A stretch of 64,000 nt of DNA, taken from NCBI GenBank assembly GCA_041667185.1, contig JBAYFM010000001.1:32052-96051 (forward strand). Reading direction: 5' to 3'. A program made the translations under genes and the position numbers. Positions within the stretch are counted from its first letter, which is position 1; each line of letters begins with the position of its first letter. The notes under the pieces are model-generated. The model did no database searches, was not told the DNA's origin, and saw only the letters and a program-made list of their open reading frames with translations. Of the stretch, positions 2,095-48,820 are shown piece by piece. The DNA is from Patescibacteria group bacterium (GTDB lineage: Bacteria > Patescibacteriota > Patescibacteriia > SG8-24).

Positions 2095-3444
2095 ATGGCC
2101 ATGAAAAGCAAGCTGAAAAAATTGGTTCCGGCCCGTTTTTTTGACGTTTACCACCTGGTCCTGGCTTATTTCGCGGCCTGGCGCCATGGCTTCCCATCGG
2201 AGAAAATGATCGTCATCGGCGTGACCGGCACGAACGGCAAATCGACCACCGCGAATCTCATCGCCCGCATCCTCGAGGAAGCGGGGGAGAAGGTCGGTCT
2301 CACGACGACCGTCAATTTCCGCATCGCCGGCCAGGACTGGCTGAACGACACCAAGATGACCATGCTCGGGCGATCGCGCCTGCAGGCGCTCCTGGCGCGG
2401 ATGGTCGCGGCCGGCTGCCGCTACGCCGTGGTCGAAACCTCTTCCGAGGGCGTCAAACAGCATCGCCACGCGGCCATCAATTATGACGCCGTCGTTTTCA
2501 CGAATCTGACGCCGGAACACCTGGAGTCGCACGGCGGCTTCGAGAATTACAAGCGAGCCAAGGGCGAACTGTTCCGCCATCTGACCGCGCGGCCGGTCAA
2601 GAGATTCGGCGGCCGCGAGATCGTTAAAACTTCCGTCGTCAATCTGAACGATCCGCACGCCGGATATTTCTTGTCTTTCGCCGCGCCGAAGAAGATCGGT
2701 TATCGCGCGGAACTGCCCGGCCGCAGCGCCGTCGCCGCCGCTGTGGATGAAACAACGGTCGCGACCGATGTCCGCGTCACCACCGAAGGTTCCGCGTTCA
2801 GCGTCGGCGGCGCCGCGTTCTTGCTGAAATTGCTCGGCGCTTTCAATGTCGAGAACGCGCTCGCGGCCATCGCGGTCACGAGCAGCCTCGGCGTGCCGCT
2901 TGCGACCGCGGCCCGGGCGCTCGCCAAGATCGAGGTCGTCCCCGGACGCATGGAATTCATCGCGGCCGGCCAGCCGTTCGCCGTGCTCGTCGATTACGCC
3001 CCGGAACCGGAATCCTTCCGCAAATTATACGAAGCGGTCGCCCTGTTCCCGAAGAAGCGCATCATCCACGTGCTGGGTTCCTGCGGCGGCGGCCGCGACC
3101 GCGATCGCCGGCCGGTGCTCGGACGCCTGGCCGCGGAGCACGCCGATATTGTGATCGTCACGAACGAGGATCCGTACGACGACGACCCGCTGGAGATCAT
3201 CCGCGAGGTCGCCGCCGGAGCGCGCGCGGCCGGCAAGCGAGAGAGGGAGAGTCTCTTCCTGGTTCCGGAGCGCCACGAGGCTTTGCGACAAGCTGTTGAT
3301 CTAGCCGCGCCCGGCGACCTGGTCATCGCGACCGGCAAGGGCGCGGAGCAAGCCATCGTCGGCGCGCACGGCGCCAGACAACCCTGGGATGAACGCGTCG
3401 AATTGCGCCGGCTCATCGCCCGCCGGCTCGCCGACGGTAAATAA
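2095..3444 (+). CDS. Mur ligase family protein (MurE/MurT-like)
   Basis: P-loop GVTGTNGKSTT, Mur ligase middle-domain architecture and a C-terminal domain. It lacks the usual N-terminal domain of MurC-F. Confidence 0.6.
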   Translation: MAMKSKLKKLVPARFFDVYHLVLAYFAAWRHGFPSEKMIVIGVTGTNGKSTTANLIARILEEAGEKVGLTTTVNFRIAGQDWLNDTKMTMLGRSRLQALLARMVAAGCRYAVVETSSEGVKQHRHAAINYDAVVFTNLTPEHLESHGGFENYKRAKGELFRHLTARPVKRFGGREIVKTSVVNLNDPHAGYFLSFAAPKKIGYRAELPGRSAVAAAVDETTVATDVRVTTEGSAFSVGGAAFLLKLLGAFNVENALAAIAVTSSLGVPLATAARALAKIEVVPGRMEFIAAGQPFAVLVDYAPEPESFRKLYEAVALFPKKRIIHVLGSCGGGRDRDRRPVLGRLAAEHADIVIVTNEDPYDDDPLEIIREVAAGARAAGKRERESLFLVPERHEALRQAVDLAAPGDLVIATGKGAEQAIVGAHGARQPWDERVELRRLIARRLADGK

Positions 3445-3452
3445 ACCTCGCT

Positions 3453-4145
3453 ATGTCGCTGCTCAAAGCCGTCAAACTGAAAGAGGGGGAGATCGTCGTG
3501 ATGATCCTGCGTCATTTTCCGCTGGTCTACGCGCCGCGGGTCCTGGCTGGCCTTTTGCTCGTGTCCGCGCCGTTCTTTTTCATGGTGCCGCTCTTCGCCA
3601 TGCGAGGCTTCGGCGTGCCGTGGGGGCTGTTCATTTTCGCCGCCTCCGTGCTGGCCGGCCTGCTCCACTCTTTGAAGACCTTTGTCGTCTGGTATTGGAA
3701 CGCTTTCATCATCACCAATCTGCGCGTCATCGACGTCGACCAGCGCGGTTTTTTCGAGCGCACCGTTTCGGAGGCGGCGTATGACAAGGTCCAGGACGTT
3801 TCGTATAAGATCAAGGGATTCTGGGGGACGCTCCTGAATTACGGCACGCTGATCATCCAGACCGCCGGCACCACTTCGAACCTGGAGTTGGAGTACGCGC
3901 GCGATCCCAAAGAGGTGCAGCACCTGCTCTCCGAGATCTTGGCCGCGCGACTGGCGGTGCCGGCTGGCGCTCGCAACGAGAAAGTCTCGGCGCTGCTTGA
4001 GGCGGCGGCGAGCCTGACGGATATCGAGGCCAAGGCCTTCCTAGTCGAACTCAAAGGAGCGGTAAACAACAAGGAGCCGAGGTCGGAGGCGGTCGATCAG
4101 GCCGACGTCGAGAAACTGATGAAGGATGATTCGGCGCAGGATTGA
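3453..4145 (+). CDS. Bacterial PH-domain (YdbT/bPH_2-like) membrane protein
   Basis: Two N-terminal TM helices followed by a bPH_2-like region (FWGTLLNYGTLIIQTAGTTSNLELEYARDPKEVQHLLSEI). Confidence 0.5.
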   Translation: MSLLKAVKLKEGEIVVMILRHFPLVYAPRVLAGLLLVSAPFFFMVPLFAMRGFGVPWGLFIFAASVLAGLLHSLKTFVVWYWNAFIITNLRVIDVDQRGFFERTVSEAAYDKVQDVSYKIKGFWGTLLNYGTLIIQTAGTTSNLELEYARDPKEVQHLLSEILAARLAVPAGARNEKVSALLEAAASLTDIEAKAFLVELKGAVNNKEPRSEAVDQADVEKLMKDDSAQD

Positions 4146-4166
4146 TCCCGCCGCACCGGTCAAAGT

Positions 4167-22216: not shown

Positions 22217-22909
22217 ATGCAAGAAAAGTTTGTCGAACAATCCGGCTGTCGGCTGAGATATCTTCAGCAAGGGGAGGAGCCGGTCTGGCTCATTCATACC
22301 GGCACGCACGGCGATGAGCAAGCGGTCATTGATTCCGTCGGGCGTTATTTGCGTTCGCGCGCCGGGGTCTTGCCGGATCTGATCTGGGTGCCGGAGACAA
22401 GTCCGTCGGCGGTCGCGCGCGGGACGCGCCTGAATGCGCGGGACGTGAATTTGAACCGGGTCTTCTATGACGATGCGGAAGAGCCCGAGGTGCGGGCTAA
22501 TCTGCGTCTGCTTGCCGGCCGGAGCTTCCGTCATTTTTTGTCGGCCCACGAGGATCTGACCACGGATAAATTTTATCTGTACGAGCAGGACGATAATTCG
22601 GCGACGCCGGAGTTCGCGCGCCTGTACGCCGGACTCGCCGCGCTCGGCATCGGCCTGTACGAGGGTCTGGATGACGACGATCCGGTGCTCGGCAATGACA
22701 TCAAACGCGGATATTTTTTCAGCCGCACATCGCGGCGCCCGAACGGCGTTCTCGATGGCACGGTCGAAGGGTATGTCGGGTTCAACCGTTTGGCGTCGGG
22801 CAAGATCATCACCGCCGAAGTGCCGGGGCGGCTGCCTCAGGAAAAGAAGGATGCCGTGGTGGCGCTGTTGTTCGAATATTTGGCTGGGAGTGACGGAGTC
22901 AGGGAGTGA
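22217..22909 (+). CDS. M14-type zinc carboxypeptidase / succinylglutamate desuccinylase-aspartoacylase family (MpaA-like)
   Basis: IHTGTHGDEQAV (HxxE zinc site) in a ~230-aa AstE/AspA-type fold. The stop codon lies inside a dispersed repeat copy. Confidence 0.55.
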   Translation: MQEKFVEQSGCRLRYLQQGEEPVWLIHTGTHGDEQAVIDSVGRYLRSRAGVLPDLIWVPETSPSAVARGTRLNARDVNLNRVFYDDAEEPEVRANLRLLAGRSFRHFLSAHEDLTTDKFYLYEQDDNSATPEFARLYAGLAALGIGLYEGLDDDDPVLGNDIKRGYFFSRTSRRPNGVLDGTVEGYVGFNRLASGKIITAEVPGRLPQEKKDAVVALLFEYLAGSDGVRE

Positions 22910-22998
22910 CGGAGTCATTAGAACTTCAAAGCGCATAAAAAAGAGCGGGATATTATCCCGCTCTTTTTAAATTTACTTCGTCTCTCCCTGACTTCGCA
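22886..22998. repeat. MITE-like dispersed repeat copy (family R1) containing a bidirectional terminator
   Basis: Left end gggagtgacggagtcagggagtgacggagtc; internal terminator aaaaaagagcggga-tatt-atcccgctcttttt; right end tctctccctgacttcgca, the inverse of gagtcagggag. Confidence 0.5.
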
Positions 22999-27123: not shown

Positions 27124-29481
27124 ATGGAAGCAGAAAAACCGCTTGATACGACCGCTCAGCCAGTTCATCTGGCCCGCACGCTCGGACCCGGATCCATCAT
27201 TTTCATGGGCATCGGCTGCCTGATCGGCGGCGGTATCTTCACTTTGCTCGGACCGGCCGCTGGTCTCGCCGGACCAGGACTTTTTCTCGCCATGATCCTC
27301 GGCTCCAGCGTGGCCTTCCTCAACTTGCAGATGTACCTGGCCTTGGGCACCACTTTTCCGGAGGCCGGCGGCGGTTATCTCTGGGTCCGCAAAGGGCTGG
27401 GCAACTTCCAGGGTTTCATGTCCGGCTGGCTCAGCTGGTTCGCCCACGCCGCGGCTTGCGGCACGTACGCCCTCAGCTTGGCCTACTACGGTTACGAACT
27501 ACTGCGCATGGTCGGCTTCGATCCGGGCATCAGCGTCGCTTCGTTCATGAAAGTCTTGGCCGTCGTCCTGATTCTGCTCTTCGGTTATCTTAACTGGCGC
27601 GGCACCAAGAGCATGGGTAACGCCGGCATCATCATCACCGGCGGCCTGCTGACCGTGCTCGCGGTTTTCATCGCAAGCGGTTTCGCCAAGATCGGGGCCG
27701 CGGCCCATCCACTCGCCAATTTTTCGCCGTTCCTGCCGAATGGTTTCTTTGGCGTCATCGCGGCCACGGCGTTTTTCTATATCGCCTTCGAGGGTTCGGA
27801 GATCCAGGTCCAGGCCGGCGAGGAAACAAAGAATCCGGAACGCGACCTGAAGGTCGGGCTGATCACTTCCTGGGCCGTCGTCTCGATCCTGTACATCCTG
27901 GTCAGTTTCGTCGTGATCGGCGCCACGCCGGCGGAGGGCGGAGCGGTCCATAAGGTGTTGAGCGGCTTCGGCGAAGGCGCGATCGTCCGCGCGGCCGAAG
28001 CCTTCATGCCCTGGGGCGCCGTCCTCATGACCATCGGCGGCTTTTTGGCCAATCTCGCCGCCCTGAACGCGACGATCTTTTCGGCCAGCCACGTCGCCTT
28101 TGCCATGGCCCGCGACAACAACATCTGGTCCCGGATGTCCCGCGTCCATCTGAAGAACTTCACGCCGGATCTGGCGGTCATCGTCTCGACTCTGCTCGTC
28201 TCCGTCATGGTCGTGGCCCTGCCACTCTTCGATGTCGCGAGCGCGGCCTCGCTGCTGTTCGTGCTCCTGTTCCTGCAGTTGAACCTCGCCGGCATCACCA
28301 TCCACCTCAAGTTTCCGGACATACGCTGGAAATATCGCATCCCGTTCTTTCCGGTCACGCCGCTCCTCGCCATCGTGCTGTATGTCTTCCTGGCCGCGAC
28401 GATGCTCCAGACCAACCTGACCGCTTGGCTCGTGACGATGGTCTGGATACTTTTGGGCCTCGTCAATTATTTCGCCTACGCCGCGCGCAAGGGCCGCGAG
28501 CAGTTCGAGGCCGAGATCGTCTACGAGGAACAGGTCCGTATCGGTCCGAAGACCGGCCAGCGGCTCCTGTTGCCGATCATGCCGACCGCGACCTTCGAAG
28601 ATATCGCCAAGCGCCTGGAGACCGCCGTGGTCATCGCTAGCCGCATGAAAGGGGAGATCATCATCCTCATGGTCCACGAGGTGCCGCAGCCGCTGATGCT
28701 GCTCGACGGCGCGACGATGACCCATGACCGCCAGATGCTCGACAATATCAAGCGCTGGGTCGAAGAGTTCAATGAAAAGACCCCCGGCCTCGATCATGAC
28801 ATCAATTTCCACAACCTGGTCATGGTCGGACGCGATATCACCGACACGATCCTGGAGGTCGTGAAGATGGAGGATTGCGACCTGCTGATGCTCTCCTGGA
28901 AGGGTTACACCCGGGTCAAGGGCACGGTCTTCGGCAGCAAGATCGACCGTATCCTGCGGGAGGCTCATTGCGATCTTCTGGTCCTCAAGGATCCGCAGCC
29001 GGTGAGTTCGATCATCTTGGCCGCGAATCCCAAGGGCAAGAATCCATCATTGAAACTGATCGGCGAGATCTACTCGGCGCTCAACGCCCAATACCATCCC
29101 AAGACCGAGCTGTTCTGCGTCCTGGGCAAAGAGGTGCCGGTCTATCTCAAGACCGACCCGACGGCGGTGCTCGGCGGTTTGGGTCTTCAAAAACAGGATG
29201 TCCAGGATATCAAGTTCACGAGTTCCAGTTCCATCACCAAGGCACTGATCGAAGAAGTGGACAGCGTCAGCGCCGACTTGGTCATTGTCGGGGCTTCCAA
29301 ACCCAAGTTCCTCAAAGACATCCGTTTCGGCCGGATCCCGGAGTCGCTGGCCAAACATCTTGAAGGCTCGTCGCTCATGATCGTCAAAGCCCACCAGACG
29401 GTGGCCGAGGCTTTCGGCGAGCGGTTGCGCGATTTCCTGGCGCGCCGGCCGAAGAATCTGCCGCCCGCGCCGCCTGTTTAG
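27124..29481 (+). CDS. APC-family amino acid permease fused to two C-terminal UspA (universal stress protein) domains
   Basis: About 12 TM helices over the first 440 aa. Two Usp-like modules follow (…IIILMVHEV… and …LVIVGASKPKF…). Confidence 0.8.
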   Translation: MEAEKPLDTTAQPVHLARTLGPGSIIFMGIGCLIGGGIFTLLGPAAGLAGPGLFLAMILGSSVAFLNLQMYLALGTTFPEAGGGYLWVRKGLGNFQGFMSGWLSWFAHAAACGTYALSLAYYGYELLRMVGFDPGISVASFMKVLAVVLILLFGYLNWRGTKSMGNAGIIITGGLLTVLAVFIASGFAKIGAAAHPLANFSPFLPNGFFGVIAATAFFYIAFEGSEIQVQAGEETKNPERDLKVGLITSWAVVSILYILVSFVVIGATPAEGGAVHKVLSGFGEGAIVRAAEAFMPWGAVLMTIGGFLANLAALNATIFSASHVAFAMARDNNIWSRMSRVHLKNFTPDLAVIVSTLLVSVMVVALPLFDVASAASLLFVLLFLQLNLAGITIHLKFPDIRWKYRIPFFPVTPLLAIVLYVFLAATMLQTNLTAWLVTMVWILLGLVNYFAYAARKGREQFEAEIVYEEQVRIGPKTGQRLLLPIMPTATFEDIAKRLETAVVIASRMKGEIIILMVHEVPQPLMLLDGATMTHDRQMLDNIKRWVEEFNEKTPGLDHDINFHNLVMVGRDITDTILEVVKMEDCDLLMLSWKGYTRVKGTVFGSKIDRILREAHCDLLVLKDPQPVSSIILAANPKGKNPSLKLIGEIYSALNAQYHPKTELFCVLGKEVPVYLKTDPTAVLGGLGLQKQDVQDIKFTSSSSITKALIEEVDSVSADLVIVGASKPKFLKDIRFGRIPESLAKHLEGSSLMIVKAHQTVAEAFGERLRDFLARRPKNLPPAPPV

Positions 29482-29499
29482 CAGTTTCAGCCTGTGGTA

Positions 29500-29513
29500 T
29501 AATTTTGTCGGCT
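29500..29513 (+). promoter_or_regulatory. Extended -10 promoter (tgtggTATAAT) for the hydrogenase operon
   Basis: cctgtggtataatttt lies about 30 nt upstream of the ferredoxin gene ATG. Confidence 0.45.
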
Positions 29514-29544
29514 TTAAATAATCTTTTTTAAACGTGAAAAAACT

Positions 29545-29823
29545 ATGGCTGCTCGCAAGATCGCCAAAGTCGAGGTCAAACGCGACCTCTGCATCGGGGC
29601 TTCGCCCTGCGTCATCGCCGCTCCGGGCGCGATGGAACTCGACGCCGACAACAAGGCTGTCTACAAACTCAAGGACGGCCAGCGCCTGTCCGGTCCGGTC
29701 GAGCGCGCGCTTCTCGAGGACCCGACCGTCGACGACGACACGCTTCTGACCGCGGCCCAGTCCTGCCCGGTCAAAGCGATCTATCTTTACGACGAAGAGG
29801 GGAAGCAGATCTTCCCGGAATAA
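29545..29823 (+). CDS. Small ferredoxin (single-cluster, Fer4_13/15-like)
   Basis: CIGASPCV...SCPVKAI cysteine pattern in a 92-aa protein. First gene of the operon. Confidence 0.5.
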   Translation: MAARKIAKVEVKRDLCIGASPCVIAAPGAMELDADNKAVYKLKDGQRLSGPVERALLEDPTVDDDTLLTAAQSCPVKAIYLYDEEGKQIFPE

Positions 29824-29832
29824 TCTTCGGCT

Positions 29833-31071
29833 ATGGCCGAAACCCGTTATCTCATCATCGGCGGCGGGGTCGCGGGGACCACGGCCGCCGATACCATTCG
29901 TAAACAGGACGCGACTGGCGCGATCACGATCGTCTCCGACGAGCCGTACCGGTTCTATTCGCGTATCATGATCTCCAAGCTGCATTATTTCCTGGGGAAG
30001 GTTCCGGCCGACCAGATCTGGCTGAAAAAAGAGGAATGGTATCGCGATAATCGCGTGAATCTGATCGCTGGGCGCACGGCCGCGAAACTGGATACGGCCG
30101 CCAAGACGGTGATCCTCGATGACGGCACGATGCTCGGCTATGACAAATTACTCCTGGCCATCGGCATCCGCGCCCGGCGCTGGACTGTGCCTGGTTCCGA
30201 CAAACAGGGTATACATTACGTCCGGACGCTCGACGACTTCAAGGGCATCACGGCCGATGTGAAGACTGCCAGACAGGCGGTCGTGATCGGCGGCGGCGCC
30301 ATCGGTTTCGAGGTCTGCGAACTTTTCCAAGCTTCCGGCCTCGACACCACGCTCGTGATCCGCGAACCGCATTACTGGGATCCGGTGCTTGACGCCGGTT
30401 CCGGCCAGATGATCGAGAAAGCCCTGGAGAAGGCCGGCGTGAAGATCGTGCGCGGCAAATATGTGACTGAAGCCTACGGCGGCGAGCGGGTCGAGGGCGT
30501 CATCCTGGAGAGTGGCGAAAAACTTCCCTGTCAGATCGTTTCGGTCGGCATCGGCGGCGTCTGCCCGCTCGATTTCGCGAAAGCCGCCGGCCTCGCGACC
30601 AACCGTGGCCTCGTCGCCAACGAATATCTCGAGACCAGCGCGCCGGACATCTGGGCGGCGGGGGATTGCGCTGAGTACCAGGACCTGATCTTCGGCGAGC
30701 GGACGCAGTTCGGCAGCTGGAGCAACGCCCAGTCGCAGGGTCGCACCGTCGGCGCCAACATGTCCGGACGCCATGAACCCTACCGCCTCGTGACCTTCTA
30801 TGCCGTGAGCGGTCTTGGCTTGAGCATCGCCTTCATCGGCTCCGTGGCGCCGCCCGGCGCCGGCCGCGACGTCGTACCGCGCGGATCGCCGGAGGCTAAT
30901 TCCTACGCTCGGCTGCTCCTCAAGGACAACCGCATCGTCGGCGCGACCCTCATGAACCGCACCGCGGACATCGGTCCGATCTCGAAACTCATCGAGAAAC
31001 AGACGGACGTCGCCGGCCGCTACTCGGAGCTCGCGGACACGAATTTCGATCTCAAATCGCTTTTGTCGTAA
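29833..31071 (+). CDS. FAD/NAD(P)-dependent pyridine-nucleotide-disulfide-type oxidoreductase (ferredoxin/rubredoxin reductase-like)
   Basis: YLIIGGGVAGTTAAD (FAD-binding GxGxxG), a second Rossmann fold VVIGGGAIGFEV and GDCAEY. Confidence 0.75.
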   Translation: MAETRYLIIGGGVAGTTAADTIRKQDATGAITIVSDEPYRFYSRIMISKLHYFLGKVPADQIWLKKEEWYRDNRVNLIAGRTAAKLDTAAKTVILDDGTMLGYDKLLLAIGIRARRWTVPGSDKQGIHYVRTLDDFKGITADVKTARQAVVIGGGAIGFEVCELFQASGLDTTLVIREPHYWDPVLDAGSGQMIEKALEKAGVKIVRGKYVTEAYGGERVEGVILESGEKLPCQIVSVGIGGVCPLDFAKAAGLATNRGLVANEYLETSAPDIWAAGDCAEYQDLIFGERTQFGSWSNAQSQGRTVGANMSGRHEPYRLVTFYAVSGLGLSIAFIGSVAPPGAGRDVVPRGSPEANSYARLLLKDNRIVGATLMNRTADIGPISKLIEKQTDVAGRYSELADTNFDLKSLLS

Positions 31072-31083
31072 CCGACATTTTTT

Positions 31084-31578
31084 ATGGCCGCCACCGAACA
31101 GCCCAAGATCCGCATCGGCTGGTTCTCTTTCTCCTGTTGCGAGGACAGCACGATCGTTTTCACGGAACTCCTGAACGACCACTGGCAGGAGTGGAAGAAG
31201 ATCTTCGATTTTCGCCACGCCCGCGTCCTGAAGACGAAGAACGTGCTCGATGAGATGGATATTGCCTTCATCGAAGGAGCCATCGCGTCGGACAAGCAGG
31301 CCAAGGAAGCCGAGGAGATCCGCGCCTTGTCCAAAGTCGTCGTGGCCGTCGGCGCCTGCGCTTGCACCGGCATGCCTTCGGCCCAACGCAACGCTTTCAC
31401 CGACGAGCAGAAGCAGGAGATCGAATTCCTGCTCGCGCGTTTCGCCGCCTCGCCCAAGGTCCGCAAACTCTCCGAGGTGATCAAGGTGGATGCCGAGGTC
31501 GGCGGCTGTCCGATGGATCCGAAAAAATTCCTCGCCGCGGTCGACCAGCTGGTCGGCCAGTTCCGGGGCGCTAAGTAG
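31084..31578 (+). CDS. [NiFe] hydrogenase small subunit, NuoB-like minimal type
   Basis: SCCEDS, GACACTG and GGCPMDP match the NuoB/PSST proximal-cluster pattern (CCxxE ... GxCxxxG ... GCP). 164 aa. Confidence 0.7.
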   Translation: MAATEQPKIRIGWFSFSCCEDSTIVFTELLNDHWQEWKKIFDFRHARVLKTKNVLDEMDIAFIEGAIASDKQAKEAEEIRALSKVVVAVGACACTGMPSAQRNAFTDEQKQEIEFLLARFAASPKVRKLSEVIKVDAEVGGCPMDPKKFLAAVDQLVGQFRGAK

Positions 31579-31586
31579 AACCGGTT

Positions 31587-32879
31587 ATGCATACTTTCGA
31601 CCTGAGTCTCGAACACGTCACCAAGGTGGAGGGCGCCGCGAACGTCAACGTCAAAGTGAAAGACGGCAAAGTGGAGTCGGTCCGCTACGAGATCGCCGAG
31701 TTCAAGCGCTTCTACACGCGCGGCATCGAGGGCAAGCCGCTCATGGCCATCCCGCAGCTCCTGGCGCGTATCTGCGGCACCTGCTCGAACGCACATCTCC
31801 TGTGCGCCATCGAAGCCTGCGAGCACGCGCTCGATCTACAGCCTACGCCGCAGACCATGCTGCTCCGCGAGCTCACCATGTGCGGGCTCAACATCCGTGA
31901 CCACGCGCTGCATCTCTATCTGTTCGTCTTGCCGGACATCGTCGGCAAGGACGCATTGCTGGAGTTCGACGAGAACGACCCGGTCCAGCATCAGATGCTG
32001 CACGACGCTTTCGACATCAAGGCCGCCGGCAATTTCCTGGCCGAGCTCGTGGCCGGACGTTCCGTCCATGCGGTCTATCCGACGCTCGGCGGCTTCCTGA
32101 AGTTCCCGGACAAGGCCGGCGTGGAAAAAGCGATCAAACTGCTCGAGTCGGTCCGTCCGGCGGTCCTGCGCACGGTCGAGATCTTCGAAAAAGCGCCATT
32201 CCATCTGGATCGCAAGACCAATTACATGGCGCTCGTGCCCAAGGATCATTTCGGATTCATTGACGGCGAGATCCATGACAGCTTCGGCCACGTCGTGCCG
32301 GAGTCCGGCTTCCGCGATCATCTTGAACACGTCGTCCTGCCGTATTCGCAGGCTTCGGCTTACAAACATGAAGGCAAATCCTACATGGTCGGGTCGCTCG
32401 CGCGCCTGAATCTGGCCAAGGACCTGCTGCACGCGAAGACGAAAGAGTCGCTCAAGGAAACACTGAAACTCTTCCCCTCGACCGACATCTTCTACAACAA
32501 TCTGGCTCAGGCCATCGAGATCCTGCACTGCCTCGACCGGGCCGTGGACGTCCTGAAGACCGTCGAGTTCAAGGCTGAACCGCTGGTGCGCATGCCGAAC
32601 AAGGCTGGCGTTGGCATCGGCGTCGTCGAAGCGCCGCGCGGCACGCTCTATCATCGCGTGGAGACCGACGAAAAGGGGAATGTGGTCAGAGGCGAGGTCA
32701 TCGTGCCCACCAACCAGAACCAGGTGAACATCGAGGAGGATGTTTGGAAGCTCATCCAGGACAACCTGGACAAGATGAGCCAGGAAGAGATGATCCACGA
32801 AATGGAGAAACTCGTCCGCGCCTACGACCCGTGCATGTCCTGCGCCGCGCACTTCCTGAAGTTGAAGTGGGAGGAGTAG
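31587..32879 (+). CDS. [NiFe] hydrogenase large subunit (soluble, group 3-like)
   Basis: N-terminal RICGTCSNAH (RxCGxCxxxH) and C-terminal DPCMSCAAH (DPCxxCxxH), followed by an 8-aa tail FLKLKWEE. Confidence 0.85.
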   Translation: MHTFDLSLEHVTKVEGAANVNVKVKDGKVESVRYEIAEFKRFYTRGIEGKPLMAIPQLLARICGTCSNAHLLCAIEACEHALDLQPTPQTMLLRELTMCGLNIRDHALHLYLFVLPDIVGKDALLEFDENDPVQHQMLHDAFDIKAAGNFLAELVAGRSVHAVYPTLGGFLKFPDKAGVEKAIKLLESVRPAVLRTVEIFEKAPFHLDRKTNYMALVPKDHFGFIDGEIHDSFGHVVPESGFRDHLEHVVLPYSQASAYKHEGKSYMVGSLARLNLAKDLLHAKTKESLKETLKLFPSTDIFYNNLAQAIEILHCLDRAVDVLKTVEFKAEPLVRMPNKAGVGIGVVEAPRGTLYHRVETDEKGNVVRGEVIVPTNQNQVNIEEDVWKLIQDNLDKMSQEEMIHEMEKLVRAYDPCMSCAAHFLKLKWEE

Positions 32880-32949
32880 CCTGATCCGCCCGCATCTTAG
32901 AATCATGACGACCGCGCCGCTGGCGCGATCGTTTTAGTCTTCGCCGGCG

Positions 32950-33002
32950 GTCCGGCGCTTGACAGCTTTTCGTTCGCGATCCATAATGGATAATGATTAT
33001 CC
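32950..33002 (+). promoter_or_regulatory. Promoter (TTGACA-17-CATAAT) overlapped by a Fur/PerR-type box
   Basis: cttgacagcttttcgttcgcgatccataatggataatgattatcc. The element gataatgattatc matches the Fur-box core. Confidence 0.6.
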
Positions 33003-34579: not shown

Positions 34580-34951
34580 TCAGCCATTCATCAGCGAATT
34601 TCGGATGAAGTCGAGCGCTTTCCGCAGCTCTATGCCTGGCGGCAGGCCGATGATGCGGAGATTTTTCAGTCGTCCGAGTTTTTGCAGCCATTTCAGGTTG
34701 GCGTAGGCGTCGAAGTCATGCGTAGTGAGGCGTGGCGCGGCGGCGAAGGCGTCCAGGGAAGCGAAGATGCGCGGTTCGGCGATGCCGACGACTGTGTCGA
34801 TGACGGTCAGTTCCGACGGCACCTCCCACTCTTCATTCGGATCTTTTATTTCAAAAACAACGTCCGGTCGGAGTTTTTGGAGTTCTGGAATAAGTTTCAG
34901 CGGCAGGGAATCTTCCGGTAGGTCGGGATTTCCGAAAATATAGACGATCAT
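34580..34951 (-). CDS. [NiFe] hydrogenase maturation endopeptidase (HybD/HoxW/HycI family, peptidase A31)
   Basis: Starting at ATG 34951, MIVYIFGNPDLPEDSLPL..LTVIDTV..TTHDFDAYANLKWLQKLG..LRIIGLPPG aligns with HybD. The three metal-ligand positions (E, D, H) are conserved. Confidence 0.65.
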   Translation of the reverse strand: MIVYIFGNPDLPEDSLPLKLIPELQKLRPDVVFEIKDPNEEWEVPSELTVIDTVVGIAEPRIFASLDAFAAAPRLTTHDFDAYANLKWLQKLGRLKNLRIIGLPPGIELRKALDFIRNSLMNG

Positions 34952-34952
34952 A

Positions 34953-34994
34953 AAAGTGCTGAAGTTGGGGAGTGCTGGAGTGCTGAAGATTGAG
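34953..34994. repeat. R1-family repeat copy (inverted partner of 35395-35430)
   Basis: aaagtgctgaagttggggagtgctggagtgctgaagattgag. Confidence 0.5.
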
Positions 34995-35351
34995 TTATCC
35001 GACCTGTTTAGCAAGTGCCGCCAGTCCAGCGCAAAGACCCTCATAGCGGCAGATCAATCCGGCCGCCTCGGTTTCTGATAAGAATCCCAGGTCTTTGGCC
35101 AGGAGAAGAAAGTATTCGGTTTCTTTCGCCGACCCGCGAGCGATGGAAAGGAAATTTTTGAACTCTTTTTTACCGGAACGTCCGTAGCCTTCAGCGATAT
35201 TGGCGCCGACTGATGTTGTTGAGCGTCGAATCTGTTGTGTAAGTCCGAATCTTTCTGTCATCGGAAAGGAGCTGGTGACCCGGTAGATCGACAAGGACAA
35301 GGCGCGGGCCTCTTTCCAGACGCGAAGGTTGCGGTGAGCACTATCGGTCAT
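34995..35351 (-). CDS. Four-helix-bundle protein (TIGR02436; the 23S rRNA intervening-sequence-protein family)
   Basis: NLRVWKEARALSLSIYRVTSSFP...RSTTSVGANIAEGYGR...SAKETEYFLLLAKDLGF: diagnostic family motifs. About 118 aa from the ATG at 35351. Confidence 0.75.
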   Translation of the reverse strand: MTDSAHRNLRVWKEARALSLSIYRVTSSFPMTERFGLTQQIRRSTTSVGANIAEGYGRSGKKEFKNFLSIARGSAKETEYFLLLAKDLGFLSETEAAGLICRYEGLCAGLAALAKQVG

Positions 35352-35394
35352 ACGCCGCCGGACGTTGCCCCACCTGTCTAAAATAGTCAAATCT

Positions 35395-35430
35395 CCGGCA
35401 CTCCAGAACTTCAGTACTTCAGCACTTGGT
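35395..35430. repeat. R1-family repeat copy
   Basis: ccggcactccagaacttcagtacttcagcacttgg, the inverse of the 34953 copy. Confidence 0.5.
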
Positions 35431-36161
35431 CAGATCGTCTTATTGGCGAGGGCAATGTGTTGTAGAGTGTATTTCCTCAATTGGGCCGCCTGCGCTTCGG
35501 AAATCACCTCGCAGGGCACGCCCCAGTGGACGCTCACGAGTTCGCCAGGCTGGATCTGTTCGATGTCCGAGCGCGCCTCGAGGCTGCGCCGGACCTGGCG
35601 TTTCGCCGGCTCGCCGAGCGCCAGTTTACCGCTGATCAAGAGCAGTGGTTCGGTCTCGATCATGATATTCGGACCGTCAACTTCCAGCACTTTGCCCCAG
35701 CTGATGCGGCATTCTTCCATGCTCTCGAGCGTGTGGGCGATCGGTAAATGCCCGGTCCGCTTCCAGATGTCGAGTACGTGGAAGGAGTGATGCGGCATGG
35801 CACCCTTGGCGATCTTGTCCTCGACCAGTTCGAACGAACGCGCATCAAGTTTCTTTTTCATCTGCAGGTTCTCGGCCAGGTGGCGGTGCAACCGTTGTTT
35901 GCCGACATTCTCCAGAAGTTCGTTGCCGATCCAGTAAGCCTCGACCACGCGGTCGTCGAAGGGGTCGCGGACACCGTTCGCGGCGGCGATAGTCGCGAGA
36001 TAGGGGAACATCGTGGCGAAACCGCGCATCAGCGCCGCAAGTCCGGGATCGGTCGCACCTTCGTTGATGTACGCCAAAATCTCCTGATTGGCGTCAGGTC
36101 CGCAATAATGCAGGCGATTCGGTCCGAAAGCGTAGCGGCTGCAGCGGAGCACTCCGTCCAT
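35430..36161 (-). CDS. Conserved hypothetical protein
   Basis: 243-aa ORF (RCSRYAFGPNRLHYCGPD...) with no family assignable from sequence alone. Confidence 0.35.
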   Translation of the reverse strand: MDGVLRCSRYAFGPNRLHYCGPDANQEILAYINEGATDPGLAALMRGFATMFPYLATIAAANGVRDPFDDRVVEAYWIGNELLENVGKQRLHRHLAENLQMKKKLDARSFELVEDKIAKGAMPHHSFHVLDIWKRTGHLPIAHTLESMEECRISWGKVLEVDGPNIMIETEPLLLISGKLALGEPAKRQVRRSLEARSDIEQIQPGELVSVHWGVPCEVISEAQAAQLRKYTLQHIALANKTI

Positions 36162-36746: not shown

Positions 36747-36809
36747 GCAGCGTCAGATAAGATATCGGAACAACCCGGCTCATCAGCCGGGTTGTTTGTT
36801 CAGGCGTCG

Positions 36810-36912
36810 GAGAGTGCAGAAGCAGGGGGTTCGGGAGTGTGGTAAAATACAGTTAAGTGCTGGGTGGATCACAAATCAGGTCTCCCGCACTCCTTCACTC
36901 CCGCACTCTTTC
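36810..36912. repeat. R1-family repeat copy upstream of nrdJ
   Basis: Left end ggagagtgcagaagcagggggttcgggagtgtgg; right end tctcccgcactccttcactcccgcactc. Confidence 0.45.
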
Positions 36913-36915
36913 TCT

Positions 36916-38739
36916 ATGTCCCCAGAAGACATCATTCCGTTGATCAGCGACAATGCCCGGCTCGTGCTTGAGTCGCGATATTTGCTGCGGGACTCGAAAG
37001 GCAAACTGATCGAGACTCCAGCCCAGCTCTTCCGCCGCGTAGCGCGGGTGATCGCGGTCGAGGAACGGCATTATGGCGCGACGGCGGCCGAGGCCCGCAA
37101 CTGGGAGAATCTGTTCTACGCCATGATGGCGCACGGCGAGTTCTTGCCGAACACGCCTACGCTCATGAACGCCGGCGCCTCGCTCGGCCAGCTTTCGGCT
37201 TGCTACGTCATTCCGATCAAGGACTCGGTCGACAGTATTTTTGACGCGCTCAAAGCCGCGGCCGAGGTCCATAAGTCTGGCGGCGGCACCGGCTTCGATT
37301 TCTCCGAGATCAGGCCGCGCGGCGATCTCGTGCGTTCGACCGGCGGCATCGCTTCCGGCCCGGTCAGCTTCCTGCATATCTTCGACGCCGTGACCGACGT
37401 CATCCGCCAGGGCGGCAAGCGCCGCGGCGCCAACATGGGCGTGCTGCGCGTGGACCATCCGGACATCCTGGAATTCATCGAGGCTAAGTTGCATGACGAA
37501 TGCCTGCGCAACTTCAACGTTTCAGTCTCGGTCACGGACGCTTTCATGCGCGCCGTCGCCGCCGGCCGGAACTACAAATTATACAATCCCCACACCGGCA
37601 AGGTCGCGGCTGAACGCCCGGCGCGCGAGATCTTCGACAAGATCGTGGCCGCGGCCTGGCGCACGGGCGACCCGGGTATCCTCTTCATCGACGCGATCAA
37701 CCGTCTGAACCCGACGCGCCACATCGGTCCGATCGCTTCCACCAATCCCTGCGGCGAAGTGCCGCTCCATCCCTGGGAGTCCTGCAATCTCGGCTCGATC
37801 AACCTGTCGAAACTGGTCGCAGGCGAACCGCTCAGCGGCAAATTCGACTGGCTCCGGCTCAAAGGGCTGGTCCACGACGCCGTCCGTTTCCTTGATGACA
37901 TCATCGACGCGAATCGTTTCCCGCTGGAGCAGTGCGCCGCCGCCGCCCGAGACAATCGCCGCATCGGTCTGGGCATCATGGGTTTCGCCGAGGCCCTGAT
38001 CCATCTCGGCATTCCGTATGATTCCGATGAGGCGTTGAAGTTCGCTGACCGCTTGATGGGCTTCATCGAGCGCGAGGGCCACGCCGCTTCCGCCGAGCTC
38101 GCCCGGCAGCGCGGCAGCTTCCCGAATTTCCGCGGTTCGCTCTGGCAGAAGCGGGGAGCGAAACGGATGCGCAACGCCACGATCACGACGATTGCGCCGA
38201 CGGGGACGATCTCGGTCCTGGCCGGCTGTTCATCCGGCATCGAGCCGTTGTTCGCCGTTTCTTTCGTCCGGCACGTCCTTGAGGGTCAGCATCTCGTCGA
38301 GACCACGCCGCTGTTCCGCGAGGTCGCCAAAAAACGCGGCCTCTGGAACACCGAGCTTGAACTCCGCGTCGCGGCCAATGGCTCGGTCCAGGACGTGGAG
38401 GGTCTGTCCGCCGCGGAGAAGCGGATCTTCCGGACCGCGCACGAGATCAATGTGGCGCATCATGTCCGGATGCAGGCGGCTTTCCAGCGCCACACCGACA
38501 ACGCCGTCTCGAAGACCATCAATCTGCCGGAGACCGCCTCGCCAGCCGAGGTCCGCAACGCCTATCTCGAGGCCTGGAAATTGAAGTGCAAAGGCATCAC
38601 CGTCTATCGCGACGGCAGCAAGACGAATCAGGTGCTCACGACCGGCGCGGCGGCGGGCGGCAAGAAGGACCTCGTCGGCGCTGGCAGCGAATACGCCGGC
38701 GGCTGTCCGGCCGGCGTGTGCGCGTATATGCCGACGTGA
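36916..38739 (+). CDS. nrdJ: Class II (adenosylcobalamin-dependent) ribonucleotide reductase
   Basis: TPTLMNAG, ACYVIPIKDSVDSIF, SGGGTGFDFSEIRPRGDLV and a C-terminal Cys pair. 608 aa; no intein. Confidence 0.85.
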   Translation: MSPEDIIPLISDNARLVLESRYLLRDSKGKLIETPAQLFRRVARVIAVEERHYGATAAEARNWENLFYAMMAHGEFLPNTPTLMNAGASLGQLSACYVIPIKDSVDSIFDALKAAAEVHKSGGGTGFDFSEIRPRGDLVRSTGGIASGPVSFLHIFDAVTDVIRQGGKRRGANMGVLRVDHPDILEFIEAKLHDECLRNFNVSVSVTDAFMRAVAAGRNYKLYNPHTGKVAAERPAREIFDKIVAAAWRTGDPGILFIDAINRLNPTRHIGPIASTNPCGEVPLHPWESCNLGSINLSKLVAGEPLSGKFDWLRLKGLVHDAVRFLDDIIDANRFPLEQCAAAARDNRRIGLGIMGFAEALIHLGIPYDSDEALKFADRLMGFIEREGHAASAELARQRGSFPNFRGSLWQKRGAKRMRNATITTIAPTGTISVLAGCSSGIEPLFAVSFVRHVLEGQHLVETTPLFREVAKKRGLWNTELELRVAANGSVQDVEGLSAAEKRIFRTAHEINVAHHVRMQAAFQRHTDNAVSKTINLPETASPAEVRNAYLEAWKLKCKGITVYRDGSKTNQVLTTGAAAGGKKDLVGAGSEYAGGCPAGVCAYMPT

Positions 38740-38935
38740 GGAGTGGGGAAGTGCGGGAGAGACGGAGCCACGTCGTTCGCGAACGACGTGACGGAGCCGT
38801 GTCGCTCGCGAGCTATACGGCGGAGTGCTGGAGTGCGGGAGTGCAGGAGAGCTGAAGGTTTGAGATCAAACTCCAGCACTTCAGAACTTCAGTACTCCAG
38901 CACTCCCACACTTAATCTCTCCCTGACTCCGCAAC
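38740..38935. repeat. R1-family repeat copy (largest) with nested palindromes
   Basis: Left end ggagtggggaagtgcgggagagacggagcc. Contains the perfect 22-bp palindrome cacgtcgttcgcgaacgacgtg and an inverted pair ggagtgctggagtgcggg / cactccagcactcc. Right end tctccctgactccgca. Confidence 0.55.
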
Positions 38936-48754: not shown

Positions 48755-48757
48755 TGA

Positions 48758-48820
48758 AGAGACGGAGTCAGGGAGTGCTGGAGTTGCGGAGCCGTCATTT
48801 TATTTCGTGTCGTCTCTCCT
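48758..48820. repeat. R1-family repeat copy
   Basis: agagacggagtcagggagtgctggagttgcggagccgtcattttatttcgtgtcgtctctcc; terminal inverted pair gagacg / cgtctc. Confidence 0.5.

Follow-up and report, generated by a model that had tools for sequence, protein, structure and literature searches.

The 64,000-nt stretch of a Patescibacteria group bacterium genome analyzed here (contig JBAYFM010000001.1, positions 32,052 to 96,051; hereafter 'the window') contains three co-oriented minus-strand genes between positions 36161 and 34580, namely a gene of the DUF6390 family (35430..36161, 243 aa; PF19927, E 1.1e-61), a four-helix-bundle (FHB) gene (34995..35351, 118 aa) identified by profile matches to PF05635/TIGR02436, a family also referred to as S23p or Avd-like, and a gene for an endopeptidase of the HybD/HycI fold (34580..34951, 123 aa; assigned using AlphaFold and Foldseek). 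The FHB gene is the core of a 478-bp minus-strand cassette (34952..35429), delimited by a comparison of filled and empty sites, which is composed of a 5' arm, a spacer, the FHB open reading frame (ORF) and a 3' arm, and whose borders are the TGA that ends the DUF6390 gene (35430-35432) and the ATG with which the endopeptidase gene starts (34949-34951). Three assemblies made independently (ENA ERZ27249449, Logan SRR6484324 and Logan SRR18595301) all show this arrangement, and the cassette is therefore not an assembly artefact.

By alignment, the two arms of the cassette (34954-34991 and 35390-35427) are 38 nt in length and 82% complementary, while nhmmer lengthens them to 34954-34992 for the 3' arm (plus-strand letters AAGTGCTGAAGTTGGGGAGTGCTGGAGTGCTGAAGATTG; E 5.8e-10) and to 35427-35387 for the 5' arm on the minus strand (AAGTGCTGAAGTACTGAAGTTCTGGAGTGCCGGAGATTTGA in the sense of the FHB gene; E 1.6e-10). 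A first-pass annotation, made from the letters of the window, had already placed inverted copies of a repeat termed R1 around the TIGR02436 gene at 34953-34994 and 35395-35430, and these positions are correct to within a few bases. Using a fixed local-alignment scoring, the arm pair scores 23.0, as compared to a median of 7.5, a 99th percentile of 11.5 and a maximum of 13.5 for 1,429 random placements of the same geometry within the window. Each arm is a tandem array of octamers with the unit AGTGCTGR: the 5' arm, which includes TGA stop codons, consists of four octamers of this type (AGTGCTGA, AGTACTGA, AGTTCTGG and AGTGCCGG) followed by the terminal unit AGATTTGA, and the 3' arm, which on the mRNA reads as CAGCACU-type units, ends 2 nt before the endopeptidase AUG. 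The cassette has perfect 12-nt inverted tips (AAGTGCTGAAGT / ACTTCAGCACTT). Across the window, AGTGCTGAAGT occurs 11 times with at most one mismatch where 0.68 occurrences are expected (none of 100 shuffles reaches 11), and AGTNCTGNAGTNCTG occurs 17 times with at most two mismatches as opposed to 1.97 expected.

The spacer between the 5' arm and the FHB start codon (35352..35386, minus strand) was not found to contain a well-placed Shine-Dalgarno sequence. N-terminal alignment with homologues favours the ATG at 35351 as the FHB start, the alternative being an in-frame TTG at 35390 which yields a 131-aa product, as called in public assemblies. The host sequences abutting the cassette (34940-34951 and 35430-35441; AGACGATC and GATCGTCT) are complementary to each other, so that the predicted stem becomes 8 bp longer, this outer helix being formed by AGACGAUC and GAUCGUCU in the predicted fold. 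The reconstructed empty site would form a small hairpin with the ATG in its loop.

The FHB protein matches PF05635 with 126.4 bits (E 6.9e-37, cut-off 33.8) and TIGR02436 with 119.8 bits (E 6e-35, cut-off 24). A profile of the FHB family identifies PDB entry 2GSC, which has five chains (E 2.3e-37), and by homology to this solved pentamer the FHB protein of the window is likely to adopt the four-helix-bundle fold and to form a homopentameric ring. A weak match (E 3.4e-4) was obtained to PHROG 3206, 'Avd protein of DGR' (diversity-generating retroelement), and a PADLOC search matched none of the three genes to a defence system.

The insertion was defined by comparing orthologous loci in relatives that show 79-87% identity in DUF6390 or 71-78% in the endopeptidase. 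In six lineages (L005/L006, L007/L008, L010/L011, L230, L231 and one Joint Genome Institute (JGI) contig) the DUF6390 and endopeptidase genes overlap by 4 bp (ATGA) and neither an FHB gene nor repeats are present, the junction reading ..ACGATATGAYCGTC.., whereas in the window the stop and start codons are both intact and have 478 bp between them (..ACGATCTGA / CC-AAGTGCTGAAGT...ACTTCAGCACTT-TT / ATGATCGTC.., slashes marking the borders). This comparison shows that the cassette is a discrete, single-piece insertion located exactly at the ATGA overlap, with both reading frames kept. An insertion adjacent to the protease gene had been proposed in the first-pass annotation and is borne out by the six empty sites. 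The 'upstream region' from which the protease gene was thought to be separated is in fact the DUF6390 gene, translationally coupled to the protease gene by the 4-bp overlap in relatives. The same annotation attributed the missing ribosome-binding site of the protease gene to the insertion, which does not hold, as the relatives also have no Shine-Dalgarno sequence at this position; it is the translational coupling that the insertion breaks.

A second filled lineage, L012 (GCA_036706575.1), carries an FHB gene whose product is 86% identical to that of the window, together with homologous arms, the units of which are in the same order, at the same junction; the one other lineage with the gene at this site thus also has the repeats, contrary to the outcome (gene present, repeats absent) that the first-pass annotation had named as refuting it. 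The L012 endopeptidase is 64% identical to that of the window, while the closest relatives (78%, 75% and 73%) all have an empty site. Recent horizontal transfer was considered as the cause of this discrepancy (86% versus 64%) and was rejected: the number of synonymous substitutions per site (dS) between the two FHB genes is ~2.9 and thus saturated, and the ratio of nonsynonymous to synonymous rates (dN/dS) is 0.03. The high FHB identity is explained by constraint, the shared site is old, and such strong purifying selection indicates that the FHB protein is made and used. The history of the site would involve either one insertion followed by several precise losses or two hits at the same position, and both scenarios require insertion or excision to be precise and site-faithful.

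The association of an FHB gene with inverted arrays extends well beyond the window. Eighty FHB loci were fetched from GTDB species genomes, the sample being seeded with motifs of one subfamily (a 12-sequence alignment), and 79 of these were scored by aligning 120 nt upstream of the gene to the reverse complement of 120 nt downstream; 734 placements, shifted to other positions of the same loci with the geometry unchanged, served as controls. The median score was 16.5 for FHB genes as opposed to 7.5 for controls (99th percentile 11.3, maximum 13). The first-pass annotation had raised the question of repeats around other TIGR02436 genes, and they are indeed present, with 60 of the 79 loci scoring above the control 99th percentile. 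These include 45 of 52 loci from Acidobacteriota, four of six from Bacteroidota, three of four from Chloroflexota and single loci from Planctomycetota, Omnitrophota, Deltaproteobacteria, Gemmatimonadota and archaea. Furthermore, ten of 11 FHB loci on viral contigs exceed the 11.3 cut-off (here with 150-nt instead of 120-nt flanks), and arrays surround the FHB gene at five of six loci on plasmids of cultured strains, the carriers being Anabaena sp. 90, Picosynechococcus PCC 7003, Nostoc punctiforme, Riemerella anatipestifer and Azospirillum. A comparison of the flanks (150 nt) by RNAduplex energy was also tried and discarded, since long GC-rich sequences always give large energies and no separation from the controls was obtained.

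The arms identified in this manner follow a common design. Nearly all have a period of 7 nt, with the unit consensus AGCWNYY, while a period of 8 nt was observed in the window and at one Planctomycetales locus (L025). At 39 of 45 two-sided loci the 5' unit and the reverse-complemented 3' unit differ by at most 1 nt, compared to 15% of mismatched loci, and the number of units per arm has its mode at four (55 of 113 arms), for which reason a scheme of five units per arm, matching the pentamer, was dismissed. The 5' array begins a median of 2.5 nt past the stop codon of the upstream gene and stops ~15-30 nt ahead of the FHB start codon, while the 3' array often starts 5-6 nt before the end of the ORF so that the stop codon falls inside its first unit; a sense stop codon is present in the 3' unit at 36 of 45 loci, while 37% of random heptamers would be expected to contain one. 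The FHB gene and its upstream neighbour point in the same direction at 69 of 76 loci, the FHB gene and its downstream neighbour at 43 of 78. Beside FHB genes, period-7 arrays reach ~27 times the density (173 hits in 21.6 kb) that they have in the rest of the same loci out to +/-2.5 kb (101 hits in 347 kb), overlapping hits being counted.

The host operons are unrelated to one another. For example, FHB cassettes with heptamer arms lie between cas6 and cas4 on plasmid pANA02 of Anabaena sp. 90 (L225) and between cas10/cmr2 and cmr3 on a plasmid of Picosynechococcus PCC 7003 (L227), these two CRISPR-Cas cassettes being annotated merely as 'four helix bundle protein'. Loci in a bacterial microcompartment (BMC) operon and downstream of a gene for a DprA-domain protein (with topA next), which were found through protein homologues, exhibit the same arrangement with different repeat units. 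The unit differs between cassettes even within a single genome (L038; L087 versus L103), while the two arms of any one cassette match each other, which argues that the FHB gene and its arms are co-inherited as one unit, as in the ORF-bearing intervening sequences (IVSs) of 23S rRNA.

Turnover of such units can be followed at one orthologous site that carries a cassette in 29 Terriglobia genomes, located after a conserved gene ending in ..AAGAGCTTCTAG and followed by ..GTAACTTGTT. Across 389 pairs of these genomes, the FHB proteins average 14.7 points less identity than the flanking host protein, and their identity exceeds that of the host protein by 4.9 points at most. Where the host protein is 93-96% identical, the FHB proteins may share just 54-60% identity and the units differ (AGCTTCT, AGCTATC, AGCGATG), which indicates replacement of the cassette rather than divergence in place. 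A contig of uncertain taxonomy (L014) shows an arrangement similar to the Terriglobia site, downstream of a DprA-domain gene.

These data bear on the interpretation offered in the first-pass annotation, in which the FHB gene was suggested to be the cargo of a vehicle resembling a miniature inverted-repeat transposable element (MITE). In its ordinary form this explanation holds that a genome-specific R1 hairpin, moved in trans by a transposase encoded elsewhere, captured or flanked an unrelated FHB gene. The terminal inverted repeats with their perfect tips, the presence/absence polymorphism of the site, a possible 4-bp duplication (CTGA/ATGA), the several ORF-less copies within 64 kb and the many ORF-less octamer hairpins in metagenomes are all in its favour. 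Indeed, the dispersed intergenic inverted-repeat hairpins, the coding version flanked by the same repeats and the polymorphism between orthologous sites (six lineages empty, two filled) are features shared with MITEs and with the system of repetitive extragenic palindromes (REPs), their paired form (REPINs) and the REP-associated tyrosine transposases (RAYTs). However, the association of FHB genes with arms is not genome-specific, being found in more than eight phyla with arms of differing units; two cassettes of one genome can differ in unit; a real 23S IVS has the same design; and a random passenger would not give a 5' array that ends 15-30 nt before the start codon or a 3' array that often overlaps the stop codon. 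Moreover, and unlike MITE or REPIN-RAYT systems, the cassette has internally tandem-repetitive arms and encodes a 118-aa helical bundle without a known catalytic motif, and no transposase was found among the called genes within +/-10 kb. A passenger on a MITE is consequently considered unlikely, and as the unit varies by cassette while the arms match within each, the relation of cargo to vehicle was probably stated the wrong way around.

The arrays might instead be native intergenic elements of the host acting as terminators, attenuators or determinants of mRNA stability, in the manner of REP or short tandemly repeated repetitive (STRR) sequences, and accumulating in any spacer between genes, with the FHB gene having arrived separately and created two spacers. 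Arrays of the same family do occur in other leaders and trailers of the window (in the nrdJ 5' leader and past stop codons at 38741 and 48757), tandem heptamers, including the TAACTGA repeats, have been described just ahead of the start codons of genes in Beggiatoaceae, cyanobacteria and Bacteroidetes (PMC4679880), and Xanthomonas contains GGGAATC arrays of ~4 units, 70-75 of them as convergent inverted pairs (PMC4692102). This explanation is very improbable in view of the ~27-fold higher array density beside FHB genes, the arms around one gene that match each other and differ from those of other cassettes, and the behaviour of the locus itself, since L012 keeps gene and arms together while the empty sites are without both.

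A more informative comparison is that to the ORF-bearing IVSs. On plasmid AZO_p2 of Azospirillum lipoferum 4B, an FHB locus was found to be embedded in large-subunit (LSU) rRNA, where the insert occupies a hairpin loop (Rfam model positions ~1211-1218), a position that we take to be the helix-45 region. The arms of this IVS are tandem heptamers (CAGAGGA CGGATGA CAGAGGA ...), and a genuine ORF-bearing IVS therefore shares the architecture of the window cassette. Based on this locus and on the outer helix of the window, it was considered that cassettes target hairpin loops; this proposal was rejected as a general rule, since the mean complementarity score of the host flanks outside the arrays was 4.18 at 45 loci as opposed to 4.19 for mismatched flanks.

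ORF-bearing IVSs have been described as insertions of ~430 nt with an S23p ORF whose terminal stem (28 bp in Coxiella) is cut by RNase III, and their mobility has long been suspected (PMC4990558, citing Ralph & McClelland 1993). The window cassette resembles those of Leptospira, Coxiella burnetii, Xanthomonas, Brucella and A. lipoferum in several respects: a PF05635/S23p protein encoded in the loop, a similar size (478 nt versus 428-444 nt in Coxiella; PMC4990558), an ORF in the sense orientation of the host transcript (the FHB gene being on the strand of both neighbours), terminal inverted repeats with a predicted long stem around the insert, and a patchy phyletic distribution. It differs in that it lies between protein-coding genes rather than in helix 25 or 45 of 23S rRNA (an Rfam scan of the window returned three tRNAs and no rRNA), in its repeat period of 8 nt instead of 7, and in the consequences of cutting, which in an mRNA would uncouple two cistrons and in rRNA are of another kind.

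The FHB-associated arrays are likewise similar to the STRR sequences of heterocystous cyanobacteria and to the TAACTGA and GGGAATC repeats in being intergenic, having a 7-nt period and most often ~4 units, often lying right before start codons or after stop codons, and containing stop codons in their units. Moreover, FHB genes were also seen in cyanobacteria, Bacteroidetes and Xanthomonas, which are groups with heptamer arrays. The difference is that the FHB arrays bracket one gene family and that the period in the window is 8 nt. The heptamer arrays of Nostoc have been described as regulatory elements whose binding partner is still unidentified (bioRxiv 10.1101/2022.06.06.494920), and neither this study nor PMC4679880 or PMC4692102 mentions FHB/S23p genes, the arrays being treated as regulatory or G-quadruplex elements. 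No link between FHB/S23p genes and heptamer arrays was encountered in the literature searched in full text, which mostly does not cover subscription journals, so that the connection may have been noticed earlier. The Avd proteins of DGRs have a homologous fold and PF05635 has been described as Avd-like (PMC10053308), while the FHB gene differs in standing alone between tandem arrays; the Pfam hits of called genes within +/-10 kb include no reverse-transcriptase domain, a template/variable repeat pair not having been searched for.

On balance, we favour with moderate confidence the view that the cassette is a promoter-less selfish gene cassette of the IVS type which resides in an mRNA operon instead of in 23S rRNA. 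Transcription of the cassette is probably due to read-through from the host gene upstream, as the cassette contains no recognizable promoter or terminator: no sigma-70-like promoter was found on the cassette strand, and the one terminator-like hit is weak and lies inside the ORF. The minimum-free-energy RNA fold pairs both arms (-176.9 kcal/mol, z = -4.4), and in the transcript these arms would form a stem of ~38 bp that closes off the FHB coding region. Such a stem is a likely substrate for RNase III, cleavage by which would free the FHB message and split the DUF6390 cistron from that of the endopeptidase, whose AUG is located 2 nt from the base of the stem. The role of the FHB protein would most likely be the maintenance or spread of the element itself, possibly through binding of the repeat arrays, while ORF-less hairpins and half-arrays elsewhere in the window would be derivatives of the same element.

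A number of observations weigh against this view. The cleavage step is borrowed entirely from the analogy with ORF-bearing 23S IVSs, and the IVS protein of Coxiella is seemingly not made (PMC4990558). Selection for RNA base-pairing does not appear to maintain the arms, as 80 sense G.U-type and 69 A.C-type mismatches were counted at 64 loci (p = 0.41), in addition to 187 transversions, nor is a mirrored unit order between arms detectable at the seven usable loci (p = 0.58). Given that no strand-specific mismatch signature is seen, the complementarity results mainly from both arms being arrays of the same unit. With dS saturated, a single old insertion with several precise losses afterwards cannot be told apart from two insertions that occurred independently. 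A target-site duplication is ambiguous, the window having CTGA...ATGA, L012 having TAA...ATG and the empty sites having a single ATGA; only a duplication-like outcome keeps both host genes intact, and selection alone could thus explain the CTGA/ATGA pattern. No transposase or recombinase could be tied to the cassette. Finally, an octamer-pattern scan of metagenomes returned mostly ORF-less arrays and hairpins, with an FHB gene nearby at only two of 120 octamer-array loci, so that a local FHB gene is not required for arrays to persist and spread.

The origin of the complementarity in a shared unit leaves room for the arrays to be, primarily, binding sites for an FHB oligomer on DNA or single strands and not an RNA stem. 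The FHB protein would then relate to its arrays as RAYT does to REP/REPIN, recognizing, maintaining or spreading its own arms and the orphan arrays, or regulating itself and its neighbours. The unit core AG(C/T) is kept across phyla while the middle position is free, and arms agree in their unit, with neither a mirrored order (not significant at the seven loci) nor a G.U bias. At the orthologous Terriglobia site the units of both arms change together when the FHB protein changes, and orphan arrays share the unit of the local cassette in the window as well as in L024, L025 and L055. Avd, which is related to FHB, binds both nucleic acid and reverse transcriptase. FHB homologues form homopentameric rings (2GSC; PMC4990558), and the Nostoc heptamer arrays have been published as having a binding partner yet to be identified. 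Against this, binding of arrays by the FHB protein is putative in a family without a known catalytic motif, the prevailing four units per arm do not provide one unit for each pentamer subunit, 118 of the 120 metagenomic array loci are without an FHB gene within the fetched DNA, and co-inheritance of gene and arms would produce the same correlation between protein and unit without any binding. We regard this protein-plus-repeat system as possible, and would sooner expect it to be wrong than right.

Returning to the selfish-cassette reading, the units that differ between cassettes and match within them imply co-inheritance of gene and arms as opposed to passage on a MITE, and the gene-plus-repeat elements found across phyla and in 23S IVSs probably constitute one widespread mobile family. 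A broader and distinctly tentative proposal is that FHB proteins and tandem 7-8-nt arrays together represent one promoter-less mobile family that settles just past the stop codons of transcribed genes, of which the 23S IVSs are the rRNA-resident minority, with the FHB oligomer as the sequence-specific partner of STRR, TAACTGA and GGGAATC arrays, and with orphan arrays as footprints or non-autonomous derivatives. Taken alone, the locus is an IVS-like element, of a known kind, that lies in an mRNA operon and has 8-nt units; of more interest is that FHB genes are coupled to inverted tandem arrays throughout the family. The ORF-bearing 23S IVSs, the abundant proteins annotated as 'four helix bundle' or 'S23 ribosomal', and the heptanucleotide arrays have been separate puzzles for about thirty years, and the locus and the survey suggest that all three are aspects of a single element, in which inverted tandem arrays frame a small gene and which, as read here, travels on the transcripts of its host, undergoes replacement at fixed sites and leaves ORF-less hairpins in its wake. 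The cultured carriers (Anabaena sp. 90, N. punctiforme, Picosynechococcus PCC 7003, Riemerella and Azospirillum), with cassettes in operons of known function (CRISPR-Cas, rRNA), make both RNase III processing and array binding testable. For genome annotation, the cassettes split operons, in the present case uncoupling a pair of hydrogenase-maturation genes, and should be recognized as insertions.

Further copies of the octamer family in the window were located with a profile built from the four best arms. The strongest is a cargo-less hairpin at 38824-38920, composed of two inverted octamer arrays (38824-38865 on the plus strand and 38920-38880 on the minus strand; E ~1e-9 per arm) whose AG(G)TTTGA ends are joined through a loop of ~4 nt. 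It is homologous to the cassette arms and has the same loop-proximal unit, AG(A/G)TTTGA, in agreement with the relationship between short copies and cassette suggested in the first-pass annotation; in sequence it looks like a cassette minus its ORF. The hairpin is not present downstream of nrdJ in relatives L005 and L007. A partial array in the nrdJ 5' leader (36876..36908, minus strand; E 0.0018), which ends 8 nt before the nrdJ ATG at 36917, is not present in the orthologous leaders of these two relatives. A weak copy, GAGTGGGGAAGTGCGGGAGAGACGGA (38741..38766, plus strand; E 2), begins 1 nt past the nrdJ stop codon and is also not present in the relatives. The remaining copies are a short array just past the stop codon of a glycosidase-like gene (48757..48786, plus strand; E 0.0024) and a weaker copy at 22889-22915 (plus strand).

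The nrdJ leader (36800-36916) further contains a terminator-like hairpin, a -10-like box (TGGTAAAAT) and octamer-family sequences on both strands (GGAGAGTGCAGAAGCAGG... and ...CTCCCGCACTCCTTCACTCCCGCACT), the leaders of L005 and L007 being ~60 nt shorter. At two sites (38741-38823 and 48757-48815) another short motif, AGAGACGGAGCC, is present along with the octamer arrays, and a perfect small palindrome, ACGTCGTTCGCGAACGACGT, is located at 38770-38789.

Among the 120 metagenomic loci (L104-L223), at least 40 consist of GGAGTRNT arrays that have an inverted partner close by, in most cases within ~150 nt. Some of the arrays are long, with up to 18 units, and several are located in reading frames that stay open over more than 150 codons, so that a few may be translated repeats. 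At two loci (L210, 1257-1880, and L222, 893-1516) a stretch of 559 nt is enclosed by octamer arrays of the GGAGTGAT/GGAGTGCT type; no convincing ORF and no FHB or Rfam match was found in this stretch, which may represent a decayed cassette or a different cargo. Among the surveyed FHB loci, L038 has a second, divergent FHB gene on the opposite strand (3694-4159, 126 aa), 1.2 kb from the first and flanked on both sides by another heptamer (CTAAAYN / GTTTAGR). At L067 (Gemmatimonadaceae, 2332-3319) inverted heptamer arrays surround two genes, an FHB gene and a 125-aa ORF whose product resembles an S4/Hsp15-type RNA-binding protein by sequence, no domain search having been made. The Flavobacterium locus L071 carries arrays with an 8-nt period on both sides of the FHB gene (2319-2369 and downstream; ACATTTTT and GTTTCACA types), apparently in direct orientation.

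With regard to the host genes, the 123-aa endopeptidase has no sequence match in Pfam, NCBIfam or PDB. Its AlphaFold model, built with 35 homologues (pLDDT 85), is most similar in Foldseek to HybD (1CFZ; E 6.9e-6, TM 0.69), followed by HycI (2E85; E 4.7e-4), and the label 'HybD/HoxW-like protease' of the first-pass annotation thus holds at the level of the predicted fold. Residues D14, D52 and H78 are invariant in the alignment of homologues and are presumably the counterparts of the HybD metal ligands. NiFe hydrogenase subunit genes are located a few kb from the endopeptidase gene: the region 29000-33000 of the window (L001 13283-16617) encodes the large and small subunits, a pyridine-nucleotide-disulfide oxidoreductase and a 4Fe-4S ferredoxin-like protein, a gene content that suggests a cytoplasmic group-3 type hydrogenase, and is adjoined by Fur, AhpC and cytochrome b5-like genes. 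At the start of the window, positions 1-1700 have a G+C content of 0.44 as compared to ~0.60 elsewhere and contain two adjacent, apparently paralogous genes of ~270 aa each, whose products resemble TrmB-like helix-turn-helix regulators by sequence, no domain search having been made; this region may have been acquired horizontally.

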